Positions 418-25,564 of a stretch of 64,000 bases of DNA are shown here, one piece after another; position 1 is the first letter of the stretch, and the number at the start of each line of letters is the position of its first letter. Position numbers and translations under genes: made by a program. Under the pieces are notes generated by a model. It was not told the origin of the DNA and ran no database searches. It saw only the letters and a list, made by a program, of their open reading frames with translations. Origin of the DNA: a virus; IMG/VR virus record IMGVR_UViG_3300042541_001664, positions 9,457-73,456 of that record, one strand, 5' to 3'.

Positions 418-1323
418 TCATTTTAAGTAAGAAAAAATATGTGCAATAACATCAACAGTCCAGGCATTGCCAATCATCTTTTTTGCTTGTGATACTGATA
501 CCAAATTTGTATACCCCTCTGGTAGTGTTTGAAGCCTCTCATATTCCAATAATGAATAATATCTAAATGGTAGTTTATCTTTAAATGCGTTTGGATGTCT
601 ACCAATTGGCAAAGGGGTTAAAACATTATCCTTATCAACTGTTGTTAAGCAATTGCTTTTATTTGTGTTTGTTGCTCTAACTTCCAGACATTGTGTGATA
701 GGAATATCTTTATTATAATCACTCCTCTTACCAGCCTCATTAAGCCTTCTACCAATGATGGTGGCCTTATTTAACCTTCTACCCCTAATTGCGGCTGGAT
801 TGGCATTAGAATCAATTTCTAGCACATCATTGAGGGTTATTCCCCTATCCTCAGGAATACCAACGCCAGGAATATTTGTCCAATATAATCTAACCCTATT
901 CTGAGCTGATACTAATGAACTATTAATTTTGATTGGGGCAACTCCTAGATATTCTGTAATAATATCCTCATATTCTTTTTTCATCACAACATTTTCCAAT
1001 AAGAAATATTTTGGTTTGCACTCATTAATCAATCTAACAAATTCAAAAAACAATTTACTTCTTGGATCGTCAAAATTAAGTTGCTTACCTGCAAATGAAA
1101 ATCCTTGGCAAGGGCTACCGCCAATTAACAAATCAATCTTTGATGCAATAAATTCAATTTTTGTCACATCACCTAATTGAACTGTGTTGGGGTAATGATG
1201 CTGTGTAACTTTTATGGCATTCTTATCTATTTCTGATGCAAAATAATTGTTGTATGGAATATTAGCCTTATTCAAGGCAATTTGCCCACAACTTATTCCA
1301 TCAAACAAACTCAATACATTCAT
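418..1323 (-). CDS. C5 DNA (cytosine-5) methyltransferase
   Basis: motif I SLFDG, catalytic GGSPCQG, ENV, QNRVR, motif X IGNAW. Confidence 0.95.
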   Translation of the reverse strand: MNVLSLFDGISCGQIALNKANIPYNNYFASEIDKNAIKVTQHHYPNTVQLGDVTKIEFIASKIDLLIGGSPCQGFSFAGKQLNFDDPRSKLFFEFVRLINECKPKYFLLENVVMKKEYEDIITEYLGVAPIKINSSLVSAQNRVRLYWTNIPGVGIPEDRGITLNDVLEIDSNANPAAIRGRRLNKATIIGRRLNEAGKRSDYNKDIPITQCLEVRATNTNKSNCLTTVDKDNVLTPLPIGRHPNAFKDKLPFRYYSLLEYERLQTLPEGYTNLVSVSQAKKMIGNAWTVDVIAHIFSYLK

Positions 1324-1379
1324 ATTTCAATATTTTTTAATATATGAGCAATAACATCAACTGCCCACGCATTACCTAT
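1320..1379 (-). pseudogene. orphan 3' end of a C5 methyltransferase gene
   Basis: reads IGNAWAVDVIAHILKNIEI* (compare LGNGWTVDVIAHIFKNIEI* of 2857..3927); its TGA overlaps the next ATG as at other array junctions. Confidence 0.85.
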
Positions 1380-1969
1380 TATGTATTTAAATTTAATGCT
1401 TGTTTAAATTTAATACAATCATTCCAATAACAACCATTACAAGTCCCTTCATATTTATCAACACCTTCAATATATGAAATAGGAAAACCTAAAGTTTTAG
1501 CATCAAATCTTATACCTGTATTAATACATCGAGTACAATCTGTTCTTTTGTTTAAATTTGCTTGACCACACAAAGGCTGAAAATCTTCTACTTTTTGAGT
1601 CTCTGTATTTAAAACATTTTCATCATCATACCTACCATTTTTATGGTCAATAACAATTCGATTGTTAGTTGTATCATTAAACCCTGTATGCACACAAGGT
1701 TTATTCGATAATTGATTTCTAATTTCTTTTTTTATAGGTCTATTGGATTTTTGAATTTCAACAAATCCATTAAACCTCCAATGTGTTATATTATTAATTA
1801 TTTTTTTTTCTAATTTTAGATGGTTCAAACCCCTATTCCTCATCCAATGATTACCATTTCTTGGATATAAATTAGCAAAATCATCAACAAGTTCATTTTT
1901 TGAAACCCATCTTGATATTCCGTATTTATCTGGTTTGAATAATAAGAGAACCAAATTTGTATTACTCAT
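1379..1969 (-). CDS. IceA1/NlaIII-like HNH restriction endonuclease
   Basis: PDKYGISRWV, IDHKNGRYDD, QKVEDFQPLC, CTRCINTGIRFDA and CNGCYW match the ICEA/NlaIII family pattern. Confidence 0.8.
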   Translation of the reverse strand: MSNTNLVLLLFKPDKYGISRWVSKNELVDDFANLYPRNGNHWMRNRGLNHLKLEKKIINNITHWRFNGFVEIQKSNRPIKKEIRNQLSNKPCVHTGFNDTTNNRIVIDHKNGRYDDENVLNTETQKVEDFQPLCGQANLNKRTDCTRCINTGIRFDAKTLGFPISYIEGVDKYEGTCNGCYWNDCIKFKQALNLNT

Positions 1970-2029
1970 AATTTTGTTTTTTAATTAAGGTAAAATTAAT
2001 GTTTTTTTTTAATTAAAGTAAATTTATTA

Positions 2030-2860
2030 CTAAATATTTTTGAAAATGTGGAAAATAACATCAACTGTCCAGCCATCACCAATACAATCATACGCCTCAT
2101 CATAAGATAGTATTTTTGTATATCCAACAGGTAGGGTTTGTAATTTTTCTATTTCAGTTTGCGATAAATATCTATACACCCCATCTCTGTATAGGTAATT
2201 TTCATTCCATTTCTTATGACCTAATGCTGTGAGGCATCCACTCTTAGGATATGGATTCACTTTAGTATATCCATTTTTTATTGATTTTTTACCGCTTTCA
2301 GAATTAAGCCATTTTACTCTACACTCATCAGCCAACACCCCGGAATAATCAAAAATATCATTTGTAGTTATTCCCTTATCTAGGGGTTGTTTAATGTCTG
2401 GGATATTTGTCCAGTAATATCTTGGTCTATTTTGTGCTGAAACTAATTTACTATTAATTGATATTGGTTTTATTCCTAAAGTTTCAGTAATAGTATTGGT
2501 GGCCTCCTTGTTACCATGAGTATTTTCAAGTAGGTAATATTTTGGTTTAACTTCATCAAGTAATCTAATATATTCCCAGAACAATCTACTTTCTGAATGT
2601 TCAAGTCCTTCTTGATTTTTATTTAGCCTTGAGATACCCTTACAAGGGCTACCACCAATAAATAAATCAATCTTTGGTAAATCACTACCTTTTAAATTTA
2701 AAATATCCCCCAATTGAATTGTGTTGGGGTAATTATCTAAAGTGCATTTTATTGCGTGAGGTTTAATTTCAGATGCATAATAATTGTCATATGATATATT
2801 TGCTCTATTTAAAGCAATTTGCCCACAACTGATTCCATCAAACAAACTTAATACATTCAT
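2030..2860 (-). CDS. C5 DNA methyltransferase
   Basis: SLFDG, GGSPCKG, LENT, QNRPR, IGDGWTVDVI. Confidence 0.93.
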   Translation of the reverse strand: MNVLSLFDGISCGQIALNRANISYDNYYASEIKPHAIKCTLDNYPNTIQLGDILNLKGSDLPKIDLFIGGSPCKGISRLNKNQEGLEHSESRLFWEYIRLLDEVKPKYYLLENTHGNKEATNTITETLGIKPISINSKLVSAQNRPRYYWTNIPDIKQPLDKGITTNDIFDYSGVLADECRVKWLNSESGKKSIKNGYTKVNPYPKSGCLTALGHKKWNENYLYRDGVYRYLSQTEIEKLQTLPVGYTKILSYDEAYDCIGDGWTVDVIFHIFKNI

Positions 2861-3927
2861 ATTTCAATATTTTTAAATATGTGAGCAATAACATCAACAG
2901 TCCAACCATTCCCCAGCATTTTATACCTTTGAGTATTTGAAACACTTTTTGTATATCCAATAGGTACAGTTTGAAGTTTCTCGAAATGGTTCGGATTTAA
3001 ATAAAACATTTCTTTACCATCAGTAATCGTTTTTCGCTGTCCTACACCTGTTAGTGTTGTAAGTGTTGGATGCTTTCCATCAATATGATAAATTCGTTTT
3101 GCCATATCAAATGAATTGTTTTTAATTTCAAATTCTGTAACCGCCTTATCATATTTACAATCTTCAATACTCAAACATTTTTTTAGTTTATCCCAATATT
3201 CAACATCAGGTATTGAAAAACTGCCATCCATTCTGAACCAATGTTCTACCATAGTTTTTGGGGCATCACAAAAATTTGCTATTTCGTTTATCGTTTTTGT
3301 TTTATGGTTTCGCAAAAATAAAGCAAGTTCTTTTTTATCAATGTAATTTTTTCTTACACTAACTTTAAAATCAGATTTGCTCATCAGTATTTTATTTTTA
3401 CGTTCATTAACAATCGGTAGTCCTAAAACATCTGCAATAACTTCATTTGAGTTTGGTAATTCATTTTGAAAAGGAATATTTGTCCAATACAATCGTTTTC
3501 TCTGCTGTGCTGAAAATAATGAACTGCAAATCTCAATAGGTTTTACACCCAACTCATTTGATATTATATCTTGCCACTCTTGTTTCATTTTAACATTCTC
3601 CAAAAGAAAATATTTTGGTTTTGTTTCCTTTAATACTCTAACATATTCCCAAAATAATTTACTCTTCCCATCAAATCCATTTCTTAAACCTGCGTTGCTG
3701 AAACTTTGACAAGGGCTACCCCCAATTAGCAAATCAATCTTTGGTAGATCATCTCCATTTATTTGGGTTACATCCCCCAATTGTATTGTTTCTGGATAAT
3801 TGTGTTGCGTAACATTTATAGCATTCTTATCAATTTCAGCAGCATAATACTTATCATAAGGAATATTTGCTCGATTTAAAGCAATCTGTCCGCAACTCAT
3901 ACCATCAAACAAACTTAATACATTCAT
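2857..3927 (-). CDS. C5 DNA methyltransferase with an HTH-like insert in the variable region
   Basis: SLFDG, GGSPCQS, ENV, QQRKR, LGNGW; insert KTINEIANFCDAPKTMVEHWFR. Confidence 0.95.
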   Translation of the reverse strand: MNVLSLFDGMSCGQIALNRANIPYDKYYAAEIDKNAINVTQHNYPETIQLGDVTQINGDDLPKIDLLIGGSPCQSFSNAGLRNGFDGKSKLFWEYVRVLKETKPKYFLLENVKMKQEWQDIISNELGVKPIEICSSLFSAQQRKRLYWTNIPFQNELPNSNEVIADVLGLPIVNERKNKILMSKSDFKVSVRKNYIDKKELALFLRNHKTKTINEIANFCDAPKTMVEHWFRMDGSFSIPDVEYWDKLKKCLSIEDCKYDKAVTEFEIKNNSFDMAKRIYHIDGKHPTLTTLTGVGQRKTITDGKEMFYLNPNHFEKLQTVPIGYTKSVSNTQRYKMLGNGWTVDVIAHIFKNIEI

Positions 3928-5114
3928 AATTCAATATTTTTTAGTATATGAGCAATAACATCAACAGTCCAACCATTCCCCAACATCTTATATCTTTGGG
4001 TATTTGATACCCCTTCTGTATAATTGTCAGGAACAGTTTGCAATCTTTCACACTCAATGGGAGTTAATTTCCTAATCTTGTATTTATCGTTTATATCATC
4101 TGTTATTAGTGCATTACCAATCCCAGTACTTCCACCACTATTTGCTGACAAACAAGGTGATTTTCCATCAGTTGAATATATTCTTTCCCCTTGTGAAAAG
4201 TTTCTTTGCAAGTTTTTCCCATTATCAAGCCATTTCTTATTTCCACCCAATGCACCAACACATTTTAATTCAGATTCTGAATGATGACTATCAATTGTAA
4301 TAACATATGGCATAAAGGAGGGGGTAATTGCAGTAAATTTACCTTCATCTGAATAAATTCTATCCTGTAATGATGGTTGTAAATCTGGAATTCCATTTCT
4401 ACCCCCCTTTGAGTTAATACATATTGGAATATCTTTAATATATTGCTGATCCCTACCACCCATTTTATAATATCCAGCATGTATTGTTCCTGACTTTTCT
4501 GGTAAACTAGTTTCTTTAATGACTTTATTATTGTGTCTATTTAATTTTTCAATAGCAATCTTTGATATGTAATATTTATCATCCACAATAGGTTCTAAAA
4601 TATCTTTTAAATATATTTTTCTATTTTCTGGTTGTTCTATACCTCCAATATTGGTCCAATACAACCTAAGTCTGTTCTGCGCTGACACCAATGAACTATT
4701 AATTCTTATTGGTTCAACACCCATATGCTCTGAAATTATATCAGAAAACTCTTTCTTCATTTTTACATTCTCAAGCAAAAATTTTACATCTGGGTTCTTT
4801 ATTCTAACTTCATTTAATATTCTAACAAACTCAAAAAACAATTTGCTTCTTGGGTCATCAAAATTAAGTTGCTTACCAGCAAAAGAGAACCCCTGACATG
4901 GACTCCCCCCAATTAACAAATCAATCTTTGGTAAAGTACTCGCATCTAATTTTGTTACATCCCCCAGTTGTTTTGTGTTTGGGTGATTTTTCTGTGTAAC
5001 TTGCATAGCGTATTTATCAATTTCACAAGCAAAATAATTATCATAATTCAGCCCCAATTTATTCAAGGCAATTTGACCACAAGACATCCCATCAAATAAA
5101 CTTAATATATTCAT
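3924..5114 (-). CDS. C5 DNA methyltransferase with a long variable region
   Basis: SLFDG, GGSPCQG, ENV, QNRLR, LTPIECERLQT, LGNGW. Confidence 0.95.
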   Translation of the reverse strand: MNILSLFDGMSCGQIALNKLGLNYDNYFACEIDKYAMQVTQKNHPNTKQLGDVTKLDASTLPKIDLLIGGSPCQGFSFAGKQLNFDDPRSKLFFEFVRILNEVRIKNPDVKFLLENVKMKKEFSDIISEHMGVEPIRINSSLVSAQNRLRLYWTNIGGIEQPENRKIYLKDILEPIVDDKYYISKIAIEKLNRHNNKVIKETSLPEKSGTIHAGYYKMGGRDQQYIKDIPICINSKGGRNGIPDLQPSLQDRIYSDEGKFTAITPSFMPYVITIDSHHSESELKCVGALGGNKKWLDNGKNLQRNFSQGERIYSTDGKSPCLSANSGGSTGIGNALITDDINDKYKIRKLTPIECERLQTVPDNYTEGVSNTQRYKMLGNGWTVDVIAHILKNIEL

Positions 5115-5926
5115 AATTTAATATTTTTTAATATATGGGCAATAACATCAACTGTCCACCCGTTCCCCAACATTTTATACCTTTGAGTGTTTGAAACACT
5201 TTTTGTATATCCAATAGGCATAGTTTGTATTCTTTCACATTCTTCTGGCGTAAGCATTCTATGGGCAGTTCTATCATCATCTAAAAAACTTTCCCTAATA
5301 CTAATTGCTGGTCTACCACTTCCTCTTATACCTTTGTAATAGGTTGCAGTTAATGTGTTAAATATATTTTTTTGTTTAAAAACTCTATCTACCCCACAAG
5401 ATGTTGGAAACCCTTCTCCCTCTATAAAATCAGAAATATTGTAATGCTTTTGTTCAGGCTGCACCACATTTGGTATATTAGTCCAATATAGTCTTCTTCG
5501 TGCTTGGGGTACAAATTTAGCACTTGAAATTTCAATTGGTTTAACATTTAACGCTTCAGTAATTATATCTTCCCACTCTTTTTTCATAATTACATTTTCC
5601 AATAAAAAATAAGTTGGATTAACCTCTTTTAATACTCTAACATAATCCCAGAATAATCCACTTTTCCCATCAAAACCTGTATTATCACCAACTCTACTAA
5701 AACTTTGACAAGGACTACCGCCAATCACCAAATCAATCTTTGGTAATGTACTAACATCTAGTTTTGTTATATCCCCTAACTGAATTGTTTTTGGATAATT
5801 ATGTTGGGCTACATCCATAGCATATTTATCAATCTCAGATGCAAAATAATTATCATATTGCACCCCTACTCTATTTAGAGCAATCTGTCCACAAGACATC
5901 CCATCAAATAAACTTAATACATTCAT
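5111..5926 (-). CDS. C5 DNA methyltransferase
   Basis: SLFDG, GGSPCQS, ENV, QARRR, LTPEECERIQT, LGNGW. Confidence 0.95.
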   Translation of the reverse strand: MNVLSLFDGMSCGQIALNRVGVQYDNYFASEIDKYAMDVAQHNYPKTIQLGDITKLDVSTLPKIDLVIGGSPCQSFSRVGDNTGFDGKSGLFWDYVRVLKEVNPTYFLLENVIMKKEWEDIITEALNVKPIEISSAKFVPQARRRLYWTNIPNVVQPEQKHYNISDFIEGEGFPTSCGVDRVFKQKNIFNTLTATYYKGIRGSGRPAISIRESFLDDDRTAHRMLTPEECERIQTMPIGYTKSVSNTQRYKMLGNGWTVDVIAHILKNIKL

Positions 5927-5934
5927 AAAAATTA

Positions 5935-6558
5935 TTAATTAATTGTTGATAATAAAACTTCTCTACACAATTCTTCTGGGATTTTGCTTCTCTCATACGA
6001 TCCTTTTCTACCTTGTGTTCCAGTCTTAGAACCCCTTGGTGCAGGTGCGTGATGACATTCTTTGTTACCATTATGACATACTGGTCTTGGAATCCATGTA
6101 TCAGAGTTTGTCCATATATCAGTTGGTTTGGCTCTTTCATCACCATATGTGCAATACCAAACAGTATGTCTTTTAAACTCTTGCATCCATGGCATTTTAC
6201 GCAACATACCCCTTGGATTCTCAATAAAGAAAACCATATTAGGATTTATCTCCAACCATTCTTTTATTAAAGAAATAAAATGCTGATTTGTAATATCACA
6301 TTTTTTTGCATATTCACTTTTTGGTTCTGTATTATTTCTATGTGTAGAAATAGCAGCTATAGTATATGTAGTACAGTCTGGTGAAGCCCAAATAACATCA
6401 GGGGTAAAAGGTATATCTTCTTTTGTTAATTTTGCAACATCAATACATAAATCAATATCTTCATATTTCTCCCAGTCAACAGAAAATACATTCATCCCCA
6501 ACTCATCCCCAACTTTGCCAATAGATCTGCTACCAGCAAATAACTCCAATACATTCAT
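5935..6558 (-). CDS. short, divergent C5 DNA methyltransferase
   Basis: LELFAG, WASPDC, FFIENP. Confidence 0.85.
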   Translation of the reverse strand: MNVLELFAGSRSIGKVGDELGMNVFSVDWEKYEDIDLCIDVAKLTKEDIPFTPDVIWASPDCTTYTIAAISTHRNNTEPKSEYAKKCDITNQHFISLIKEWLEINPNMVFFIENPRGMLRKMPWMQEFKRHTVWYCTYGDERAKPTDIWTNSDTWIPRPVCHNGNKECHHAPAPRGSKTGTQGRKGSYERSKIPEELCREVLLSTIN

Positions 6559-21866: not shown

Positions 21867-22574
21867 ATGAAAATAAGTGATTATTTAACAATTGTTATCC
21901 CATGTAAAAATGAAAAGAATGTAATAATAGACTGTTTAACTTATTTGGATAAACAAACTGATATTTTAGGAACAAATGTTTATATTTGTGACTCATCTAA
22001 TGATAGAATTACAAAAAGTTTGATAAAATTAAATGAATTTAATAATTTGAATATCGAAATGCTGTCTGGGGGGTTACCTGCGAAGGCTAGAAACATAGGT
22101 TTTAAACGTTCAAATACAATTTATACATTATTTCTGGATGCTGATGTTTTTTTGAAAGATAAAAATTTATTATTAAATTGTGTGAATGATTCATTAGATA
22201 ATTACTTAGATTTGCTTACCGTTAAATTTAAAACATTAAATGGTAAATATGATTTTGTTTATATTATGCTTGATTTTTTAAGGAAAATGGTTTCAAGGAT
22301 ATCCCCATTTTGTCTAGGCGGATTTATGTTTTTTAGAACATTAAAATTACGTGAATTGGGTGGATTTAATAATGAATGTGTTTTTGCTGAAGATTATGAG
22401 TTAAGCAAAAGAGTTGAACCAAAGAAATTTAAAGTTAGTAAGCAATACGCTTATACATTAAATAGAAGATTTGAATCCAAAGGTATTTATTATATGGGTA
22501 AAATGCTTTTTAAGTCTTTTATAAATAGGAATAATCCAGAATTCTTTAAACAATCGCATAAATATTGGGATTAA
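21867..22574 (+). CDS. glycosyltransferase family 2
   Basis: IVIPCKNE, ARNIG, FLDAD, GGFNN..FAED. Confidence 0.92.
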   Translation: MKISDYLTIVIPCKNEKNVIIDCLTYLDKQTDILGTNVYICDSSNDRITKSLIKLNEFNNLNIEMLSGGLPAKARNIGFKRSNTIYTLFLDADVFLKDKNLLLNCVNDSLDNYLDLLTVKFKTLNGKYDFVYIMLDFLRKMVSRISPFCLGGFMFFRTLKLRELGGFNNECVFAEDYELSKRVEPKKFKVSKQYAYTLNRRFESKGIYYMGKMLFKSFINRNNPEFFKQSHKYWD

Positions 22575-24700: not shown

Positions 24701-25564
24701 TTAAAGTAATCTACTTATTTTTTCTGCTAATTCGCTAATAAGATATTTTGAACTATTTTGAAAATATCTAAAATGGTCAAAACGCAAGTAATTTTCATTA
24801 AATTCATCTTTTGGTAAAACCATATCTTTTTTAAAGTCAAATCTTGTAATACCTTCTGGGTTTTTATATCCCTTTGTAAAATCTTTATTGAGGGTGCTTA
24901 TGGTCTCTAATTCATCATCCTTTGGATTATATGCGTGAAATGGTCTACCTTTAACTTTAGTCATAAATTGGGCTTCATCTCCAAAGTTATAATGTGAAAA
25001 TGTATCTGTGTCATCTAATCCAGGATATGATGTATTATTTGTTCCATATAAATATTTACTTCCACTATCCTTTTCAAAAATCATTACAGCATCTTGGCAA
25101 AATAGTTTTCCTAATTTTATAATGTTATCAATAAACTTGGGGTCTTCATTAAGATTTACAACAAACAAAGAATCTTCTTTTTTTTCTTTAGGTTCTGCTC
25201 TTACAATAACTTCTCCTGATTCTGCATCCAATTCTTTTTGTTTATCACTAATATAATTTTCAATATAATTACCTTTAACATTTGTTATGGCATACTTGTT
25301 ATTTAACAAAAAGGCTTTAAGTGCCTTATTTCTTCCTTTGTTGTCAGATATATTTATTTTTGTTAAATCTTCTGTATCATATAAACAATTAACTAATTCA
25401 TCCCTAAATGCTGTTATGATTGCACAATCATACTTTTTAGTAAGACTTAATACCCTACTCATAGATGATTCAGTTAGGATTTCTGGAACTTTTGGTTTGT
25501 TATTTAAATGTGAATAGTCAGTTTCATTCAATAACTTATTAAATTTGTCTATTAAATCTCTCAT
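24701..25564 (-). CDS. T4-like phage protein (DUF3293-like)
   Basis: ESSMSRV, IITAFR, RNKALK, EDSLFV, LGKLFCQDAV. Confidence 0.7.
   Translation of the reverse strand: MRDLIDKFNKLLNETDYSHLNNKPKVPEILTESSMSRVLSLTKKYDCAIITAFRDELVNCLYDTEDLTKINISDNKGRNKALKAFLLNNKYAITNVKGNYIENYISDKQKELDAESGEVIVRAEPKEKKEDSLFVVNLNEDPKFIDNIIKLGKLFCQDAVMIFEKDSGSKYLYGTNNTSYPGLDDTDTFSHYNFGDEAQFMTKVKGRPFHAYNPKDDELETISTLNKDFTKGYKNPEGITRFDFKKDMVLPKDEFNENYLRFDHFRYFQNSSKYLISELAEKISRLL

Follow-up and report, generated by a model that had tools for sequence, protein, structure and literature searches.

A tandem array of C5 methyltransferase genes with unlike target-recognition regions and variable content in a probable large T4-type lake phage

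Temperate Bacillus phages encode multispecific C5 methyltransferases (M.SPRI, M.Phi3TI, M.Rho11sI, SPbeta), in which several target-recognition regions (TRDs) stand in tandem in one polypeptide. Phage orphan methyltransferases include abundant phage genes labelled DNMT3A by KEGG (PMC11309003), and the chlorovirus enzyme M.CviAIV is said to cluster with Dnmt3 (PMC3227630). In T4-type phages, modular shuffling in hyperplastic regions is mediated by PeSLs, according to Arbiol et al. 2010 (PMC2839356). Here, we analysed a tandem array of C5 methyltransferase genes on the minus strand, at 418-6558 of a 64,000-nucleotide stretch of viral DNA (the window), which corresponds to bases 9457-73456 of the 73,456-base contig of IMG/VR record IMGVR_UViG_3300042541_001664. 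In gene direction, the array reads M6-M5-M4-M3-M2-spacer-ICEA-relic-M1, where M1-M6 are the methyltransferase genes and ICEA an endonuclease gene (Table 1). We regard it as probable that a large T4-type lake phage carries this array as an accessory, anti-restriction island, made up of five monospecific DNMT3-like methylases plus M6. Anti-restriction methylation of multiple specificity is most likely its function, because of what the family does and because each member of an array carries its own TRD type, as detailed below.

M1-M5 match the C5 methyltransferase family PF00145 at 118-164 bits (E 8e-34 to 7e-48; cut-off 22 bits) and TIGR00675 at 106-158 bits, above its cut-off of 100.65 bits. 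An earlier note, made from the letters of this DNA alone, had described five paralogs that start MN(V/I)LSLFDG(M/I)SCGQIALN and end G(N/D)(G/A)WTVDVI.HI, all keeping the catalytic PC; these starts and ends are seen in five minus-strand open reading frames (ORFs), and the PC lies in a GGSPC block that is invariant in M1-M5. Between paralogs, identity is 55-72% in the N-core and 56-85% in the C-core, and M2-M5 are 51-57% identical to M1. The blocks invariant in the alignment are GGSPC, LLEN, Q..R.R.YWTN, Q-T-P..YT and G..WTVDVI (columns F7 D8 G9, G68-C72, L108-N111, Q141 R143 R145, Q265 T266 P268 Y271 T272, G285 and W288-I293). In terms of motifs I, IV (PC), VI (ENV), VIII (Q.R.R), IX and X, the canonical order is kept and the variable region falls between VIII and IX. 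Each protein has one such variable block (69-189 aa), between a single N-core and a single C-core, and blastp at E<=1e-3 returned no match between the TRDs of M1-M5, a region that the earlier note had called unrelated and of varying length. Among solved proteins, the catalytic domains of DNMT3A/3B come nearest to M1, M2, M3 and M5 (E 1e-22 to 1e-26), and M4 has M.HhaI first and DNMT3B next. M5 matches the DNMT3A catalytic domain over its full length (residues 2-269 versus 8-278, E 1.4e-22).

The shorter type that heads the array, M6, has no Pfam, NCBIfam or PDB sequence match, PF00145 and TIGR00675 included, and matches phrog_757, 'DNA methyltransferase', at E 3e-27. Its AlphaFold2 model (pLDDT 92.8, pTM 0.90) retrieves DNMT3B, M.HaeIII, DNMT3A, DNMT2 and M.HhaI in Foldseek with probability 1.00 and E 8e-8 to 1e-6, and its TM(query) to solved C5 methyltransferases is 0.5-0.6. 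Aligned with M1-M5 by hhalign, M6 reaches just 61% probability, over residues 1-82. Judged from the model, M6 is thus a protein of C5 methyltransferase fold belonging to another family than M1-M5. That family counts 2288 representatives at E<=1e-3. Motif IV of M6 reads SPDC, as it does in the M6 ortholog of the related contig G001 (see below) and in 7/36 members of the family; residue 61 is D in those 7/36 and P in 23/36. Four representatives of the family (P0121, P0128, P0143 and P0198; 422-535 aa) match in two stretches, which suggests that the small methylase is interrupted there by a large insert (e.g. an intein or an endonuclease). The earlier count of six methyltransferases therefore stands, by Pfam for M1-M5 and by fold for M6, but it had overlooked the endonuclease gene among them.

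Three junctions of the array are 4-nt ATGA overlaps (5111-5114, 3924-3927 and 2857-2860), in line with the coupling claimed for several of the genes. With all genes on one strand and these three overlaps, the array is probably co-transcribed and translationally coupled. The M2-ICEA spacer is 60 nt long and holds both copies of a 28-nt unit.

Table 1. Features of the array, in gene direction (window coordinates)
Feature	Position	Strand	Description
M6	5935-6558	-	207 aa; C5-methyltransferase-fold protein, separate family
M5	5111-5926	-	271 aa; TRD ~5243-5449 (69 aa); PF00145 E 8e-46
M4	3924-5114	-	396 aa; TRD ~4056-4622 (189 aa); PF00145 E 7e-48; ATGA overlap with M5
M3	2857-3927	-	356 aa; TRD ~2989-3453 (155 aa); PF00145 E 2e-44; ATGA overlaps on both sides
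M2	2030-2860	-	276 aa; TRD ~2156-2377 (74 aa); PF00145 E 8e-34
14-nt direct repeat CAGTTGATGTTATT, left copy	2054-2067	-	motif X (..VDVI) coding block
Tandem 28-nt AT-rich unit, two copies	1969-2024	.	directly upstream of ICEA; part of insert
ICEA, IceA/NlaIII-family HNH endonuclease gene	1379-1969	-	196 aa; PF05315 E 4e-38
Relic methyltransferase C-terminus	1320-1376	-	19 codons; GNAWAVDVIAHILKNIEI* (asterisk, stop)
14-nt direct repeat CAGTTGATGTTATT, right copy	1350-1363	-	inside relic
M1	418-1323	-	301 aa; TRD ~547-846 (100 aa); PF00145 E 6e-41

A pattern search of IMG/VR gave at least 577 matches to the M1-M5 family; 565 of them were confirmed, and 80 loci were kept. Most of these 80 other loci hold one family gene (66), and the rest two (7), three (6) or five (1); some of the counts of two arise from genes truncated where a contig stops, and the pairs L018/L019 and L022/L023 each represent a single array that was sampled twice. 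By their TRDs, the 94 full-length members form 23 clusters, a common one, T1 (the M1 type), having 12 members. At all 11 multi-gene loci (11/11), every member belongs to a different TRD cluster, indicating that arrays collect unlike TRDs.

The array is carried by DNA of ~29% GC, on a contig with an estimated completeness of 23%. The window encodes a T4-type terminase, a gp20-type portal and a prohead protease, and its portal shares 74% identity with the portal of a complete 322-kb phage (G004), 69% with that of a 296-kb one (G003) and 56% with that of a 362-kb one (G002). These genes, together with the matches of the portal to large phages, indicate that the window comes from a jumbo T4-type phage. 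Near-identical DNA occurs in 18 public runs labelled lake water metagenome; the public-contig comparison covers the parts represented in each run, uncovered parts (e.g. M6 in runs X8 and X18) being left out. PF00145 genes number 0 in G004 and 1 in G002, while G003 has three in tandem and one elsewhere; counts among relatives reach 5, and this spread speaks for an accessory nature of the genes.

We then compared array content among closer relatives, as the earlier note had proposed, and found that it is not invariant: four arrangements were observed. Besides that of the window, the 2.7-kb metagenome contig L151, 97.8% identical to the window over 2172 nt, reads ...M4-M3-M2-M1 without ICEA, with M2 joined to M1 by ATGA (ortholog identity 99% for M3, 98% for M2 and 97% for the C-terminal part of M4). 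A second contig, L155, has the upstream flank of the window followed by M6-M4-M3-..., and is 87-91% identical (M4 94%, M3 85%). The gene that follows M6 in L155 is already of the M4 type at its first codons, which shows that M5 is absent as an exact unit. The fourth arrangement, M5'-M4'-M3'-X'-M1'-M6', is found on the 78,883-base contig G001 between unrelated flanks, with orthologs 79-90% identical in protein and ~84% in DNA (M5 86%, M4 84%, M3 90%). Here, a 418-aa family member with another TRD, X', occupies the M2 slot, M2 and ICEA are absent, and M6 lies at the end of the array instead of at its head. None of the 20 ORFs flanking the G001 array has a homolog on the contig of the window, and the whole contigs G000 (that of the window) and G001 have in common, outside the array, one GIY-YIG-like ORF and 3 weak matches. 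That ORF (L009:1115-1885, plus strand) contains a run of KISEA.KGK repeats and is 57% identical to its G001 counterpart. An empty site could not be defined in relatives, as the sole homolog of the 555-aa ORF of one flank is a partial one in G004 (41%) and the other flank lacks homologs. We also rejected a chimeric origin of M2 from the G001 gene X': in successive 60-nt windows, the 5' end of M2 is 80, 65 and 55% identical to X' versus 90 and 82% to M3.

The breakpoints between these arrangements fall at the conserved ends, as the earlier note had foreseen: the ICEA insert lies at the 14-nt motif-X repeat, the M5 insertion or deletion at start codons, and M6 moves as one gene. The mismatches between L151 and the window are clustered (47/2172 versus 62/554, Fisher p 1e-17). 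In M3 and M2 they number 0-2 per 100 nt, rising to 8 per 100 nt across the M4/M3 junction and, in a patch of M1, to 17 and 21 per 50 nt. This patch is the motif IV-VI segment; the version in the window is 90% identical to M4, and the one in L151 is 81-90% identical to M5/M3 and 54% to M1 of the window. In G001, M1' and M4' share a 75-nt identical run, being 79% alike overall. Within the array of the window, the likeness of the ends at the DNA level that had been pointed out is borne out, both for 2917-2964 versus 5171-5218 (1 mismatch in 48 nt) and for 1281-1361 versus 2818-2898; the latter arises because the relic is the C-terminus of a methyltransferase. Note that this likeness is largely what conserved residues and AT-rich codon use would give. 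The same codon is used at the same residue slightly above chance (e.g. M1/M4 N-core, 62/116 versus 60.8 expected), the strongest excess being in the C-core of M3/M5 (25/33 versus 16.7 expected, p 0.003 before correction for 20 tests), and the longest identical run between paralogs of the window is 31 nt. Conversion between paralogs is patchy. Read-level recombinants were not used: the 10 paralog joints found have sides of 21-31 nt, and such joints come from repeats or other organisms; each was seen in one contig per run, and one joint in two runs.

No exchange of a TRD alone was seen within this array. In the wider family, T1-TRD carriers do not form one clade on the N-core tree (approximately unbiased (AU) test, p 0.0012), and the core of one T1 protein is closer to the core of a T10 protein (82% identity) than to that of the T1 protein with the nearest TRD (74%). 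For the carriers of T12 TRDs, a clade was not rejected (p 0.13). T1, T2 and T12 were picked for the AU test after the tree had been seen, the clusters having been defined beforehand. The T2 result (p 0.010) was discarded because that cluster is a single-linkage artefact, the TRD of M2 and those of L019/L030 being 32% identical over 60 aa. Overall, the interpretation of the locus as a recombining array is supported by sequence comparison: of the cassette-like exchange at conserved ends that the earlier note proposed, the gain, loss and movement of genes and patches in the cores are borne out.

One of these breakpoints concerns ICEA. A segment of 704 nt is present in the window and not in L151; it is bounded by the 14-nt direct repeat CAGTTGATGTTATT, of which L151 has a single copy. 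The insert contains a new 7-codon tail of M2 (FHIFKNI*), followed by the spacer, ICEA and the beginning of the relic; the L151 allele of M2 ends ...VDVIAHILKNIEI*, and this old tail is the remainder of the relic in the window, still overlapping the ATG of M1. The relic is out of frame with ICEA, its TGA overlaps the M1 ATG, and it has Ala in place of a Thr that is T in 91/94 C-cores of the family. The 704-nt difference is explained equally by an insertion and by a deletion between the 14-nt repeats. A donor with the ...VDVIFHIF tail was not found among 230 loci. Contigs from other runs over M1-relic-ICEA (1-2010) and over the ICEA-M2 junction (1680-2083) have 0 differences, so that an assembly error can be discounted as the source of the insert. 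The 18-nt core of the 28-nt unit occurs exactly only at its two places in the window, and was rejected as a recurring promoter (6 matches at <=3 mismatches versus 5.65 expected).

ICEA itself appears intact. The PF05315 match covers residues 3-190 of 196, the HNH and Zn-binding residues are intact, and 6 viral homologs show no variation in DHKNGRYD, DFQ, N..KR and the Cys pairs. Its GC is 0.269 versus 0.31-0.34 in the methyltransferase genes. From its 35% identity to the Neisseria lactamica homolog, we infer that ICEA would cleave CATG. Among the loci examined, the same TRD as that of M2 is found only in LR745206, a 634-kb phage (80% identical), and the TRDs of M1-M5 have no similarity to the C5 methylases that adjoin bacterial ICEA genes. 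As a side observation, an ORF of ~371-391 aa without Pfam match recurs directly beside bacterial ICEA homologs (loci L105, L108, L109, L110, L114, L116, L119, L120, L121, L124 and L150) and may be a third component.

In the account of the locus as an anti-restriction island, each enzyme would, as expected from its family, methylate its own short motif on phage DNA, and the combined methylation would shield this DNA from several type II restriction enzymes of the hosts. Around each TRD lie ~600 nt of conserved coding sequence, made of the C-core of one gene and then the N-core of the next, and comparison with relatives shows that whole genes are gained, lost, moved and patch-converted by homologous recombination within these blocks. 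The same route has probably brought ICEA in at the motif-X block of M2. ICEA would then probably cut CATG in unmethylated DNA of the host or of rivals, with a methylase of the array protecting the phage, and a 5-methylcytosine (m5C) partner of ICEA inside the array is plausible. A broader proposal is that the conserved coding ends double as a recombination scaffold, a coding counterpart of PeSLs that would allow methylase trading and endonuclease capture and pair an NlaIII-family enzyme with m5C; ICEA, for example, may have integrated as an excised circle at the 14-nt motif-X block, and the jumbo lake phages would hold a population-level library of methylation specificities. Taken jointly, the parts of this broader proposal are tentative, and we would not expect all of them to hold.

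Several observations weigh against this account. No TRD matches a solved or named enzyme, as only the catalytic cores align, and all comparison sequences are metagenome assemblies. Synonymous sites between paralogs are near saturation, with no broad homogenisation, and on the core tree the orthologs of the window and G001 pair, not the paralogs. It follows that only the M2/X slot has changed type since the split of the two arrays and, together with the near-chance sharing of codons, that the paralogs are old lineages brought together rather than recent duplicates that diverged in place. On the contig, observed/expected (O/E) ratios are low for GATC (0.27), CATG (0.27), AGCT (0.36), GGCC (0.48) and CpG (0.38). 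The C-to-T bias that the earlier note proposed to look for did not appear, since the products are not in excess (TATG 0.98, GATT 1.03, AGTT 1.09). Depletion without such an excess points to selection against the sites and not to deamination, and suggests that these are not the methylated sites; the phage would still rely on avoidance. As to ICEA, an N6 methylase adjoins it in 38/50 bacterial loci; only a C5 methylase is adjacent in 3, both in 1 and none in view in 6, and 3 loci were left out of the scan. At viral ICEA loci, an N6/N4 methylase adjoins in 3/4 of those scanned; 7 were found, and 3 near-identical ones were left out of the Pfam scan. No N6/N4 methylase (PF01555, PF02086) is present on the 73-kb contig, which represents 23% of the genome, and LR745206 has the M2 type without any ICEA homolog.

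Other words show their own patterns. On contig G000, CGCG occurs 0 times versus 24 expected. On G001, CTAG occurs 0 times versus 463 expected (both strands) and CCAG/CTGG 2 versus 250, with TTAG (1.26) and TCAG (1.25) in excess; the contig of the window has a CTAG O/E of 0.92 and no such pattern.

Could the island be mainly a restriction-modification system, in which ICEA cuts CATG, M2 or M1 is the cognate m5C methylase and the other genes are secondary? An intact ICEA between M2 and M1, the absence of both M2 and ICEA from G001, the 3/50 bacterial loci that pair ICEA with a C5 methylase alone, and a CATG O/E lower on the contig of the window (0.27) than in G001 (0.48) would fit. There is also a precedent from Ureaplasma, where a predicted C5 methylase shields CATG against NlaIII as well as the organism's own enzyme (PMC6191088), its authors taking the methylase for an N6-methyladenine (m6A) enzyme. 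We consider this scenario unlikely, if the most serious competitor, as L151, at 98% identity, has M2 and M1 without ICEA, LR745206 has the M2 type without it, the M1 type is common in contigs that lack ICEA, 13 other loci with 2-3 family genes have no endonuclease, and ICEA is mostly paired with an N6 methylase. The view that the shared ends are conserved for the catalytic fold only, in an old and essentially static paralog cluster in which recombination plays no special part, draws on the near-chance use of identical codons at identical residues in most pairs, on the grouping of orthologs rather than paralogs on the core tree, and on public-contig joints whose 21-31 nt sides make them unusable. 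It is improbable in the face of four arrangements among relatives 84-98% identical, of the 14-nt repeat that bounds the insert, of the converted patch in M1 and of the 75-nt identical run in the G001 paralogs.

Methylation could also be the first step of a hypermodification (5-methylcytosine, then 5-hydroxymethylcytosine, then glycosylated bases), as happens in phages that encode TET. A coupling of C5 methylases with TET and glycosyltransferases has been described in phages (PMC8256090) and a family 2 glycosyltransferase is encoded at 21867-22574, but a dioxygenase was found in 0/71 window ORFs scanned by Pfam and such a pathway has no need of five different TRDs, which makes this option very improbable; a TET/JBP search gave no match on the contig, the control genomes being equally silent. 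Finally, the array might have been stitched together during assembly, at the conserved ends, from members of co-occurring phages: public unitigs break at every conserved junction and the family is abundant in the same habitats. This is scarcely credible, since independent contigs bridge the junctions (L151 for M4-M3-M2-M1, L155 for M6-M4-M3 and G001 for M5-M4-M3), overlapping X2 unitigs span the M6/M5 and M5/M4 junctions and show 0 differences, and the identical runs between paralogs of the window do not exceed the 31 nt given above. The anti-restriction island thus remains the reading we prefer.

Elsewhere on the phage DNA, 31880-32536 and 43988-47020 of the window encode ClpP, a ClpB-like double AAA ATPase, Hsp20 and a cyclophilin-type prolyl isomerase. 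At 24701-25564 (minus strand), there is a weak match, below cut-off, to an S-adenosylmethionine (SAM) lyase family (PF23780, E 4e-6); a SAM lyase, if real, would be odd beside six SAM-dependent methylases. Upstream of the window, the minus strand of the contig carries another tandem paralog array (L009:3343-6985) of 8 consecutive small ORFs of 113-196 aa, several of which overlap or abut. They start with M(K/E)KETLKNIF in 6/8 cases, and with MKNKTLKNIF or MEKETLKNIM in the others, and contain a variable number of leucine-rich-repeat-like SLPEGLKV units. In G003, the portal match (C1:162879-165962) comes in two stretches within one 1034-aa open frame, as an intein or in-frame insert would give.

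Phage methyltransferases are a known counter to restriction, and how a phage assembles and updates its set of specificities is far less documented. The locus offers a concrete case with mapped breakpoints: one scaffold, many TRDs, and coupled arrays that differ at 84-98% identity, with junctions that are also able to capture a restriction endonuclease. If active, the enzymes would form a panel of small DNMT3-like enzymes with new specificities, and the arrays a natural system for specificity turnover in abundant lake phages.

Among described systems, animal DNMT3A/3B catalytic domains are the closest solved sequences, and M5 has the same LSLFDG motif I and a short TRD, as judged by the sequence match, but the phage proteins have no regulatory domains. 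The phage orphan methyltransferases belong to the same enzyme class, with the same presumed role, and the family is abundant in viromes; they are described as single genes, whereas here they form an array, and in the literature (full texts, supplements aside) we found no coupled arrays of monospecific C5 methylases with variable content. ICEA is in the same Pfam family, PF05315, as the enzymes of the NlaIII and IceA1-HpyI systems, with intact HNH residues; unlike in those systems, the N6-adenine methylase is not on the contig, and C5 methylases adjoin ICEA, in a phage. An integron-like organization is not suggested, as 0/71 Pfam-scanned window ORFs are an integrase or recombinase and three junctions have no spacer, inverted repeats being outside the search. 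As with the shuffling by PeSLs, a T4-type region has short repeats between accessory genes and undergoes insertion, deletion and replacement, but PeSLs are non-coding promoter-plus-terminator cassettes and the repeats here are the coding ends of genes: three junctions have no intergenic DNA, promoter-like sites number 37 versus a mean of 49.3 in shuffles, and terminator-like sites 6 versus 2.7. The array resembles most in principle the Bacillus-phage enzymes, with one C5 scaffold, interchangeable TRDs and a presumed protection against several restriction enzymes, and differs from them in that each TRD comes with its own complete core, in separate genes coupled by ATGA.

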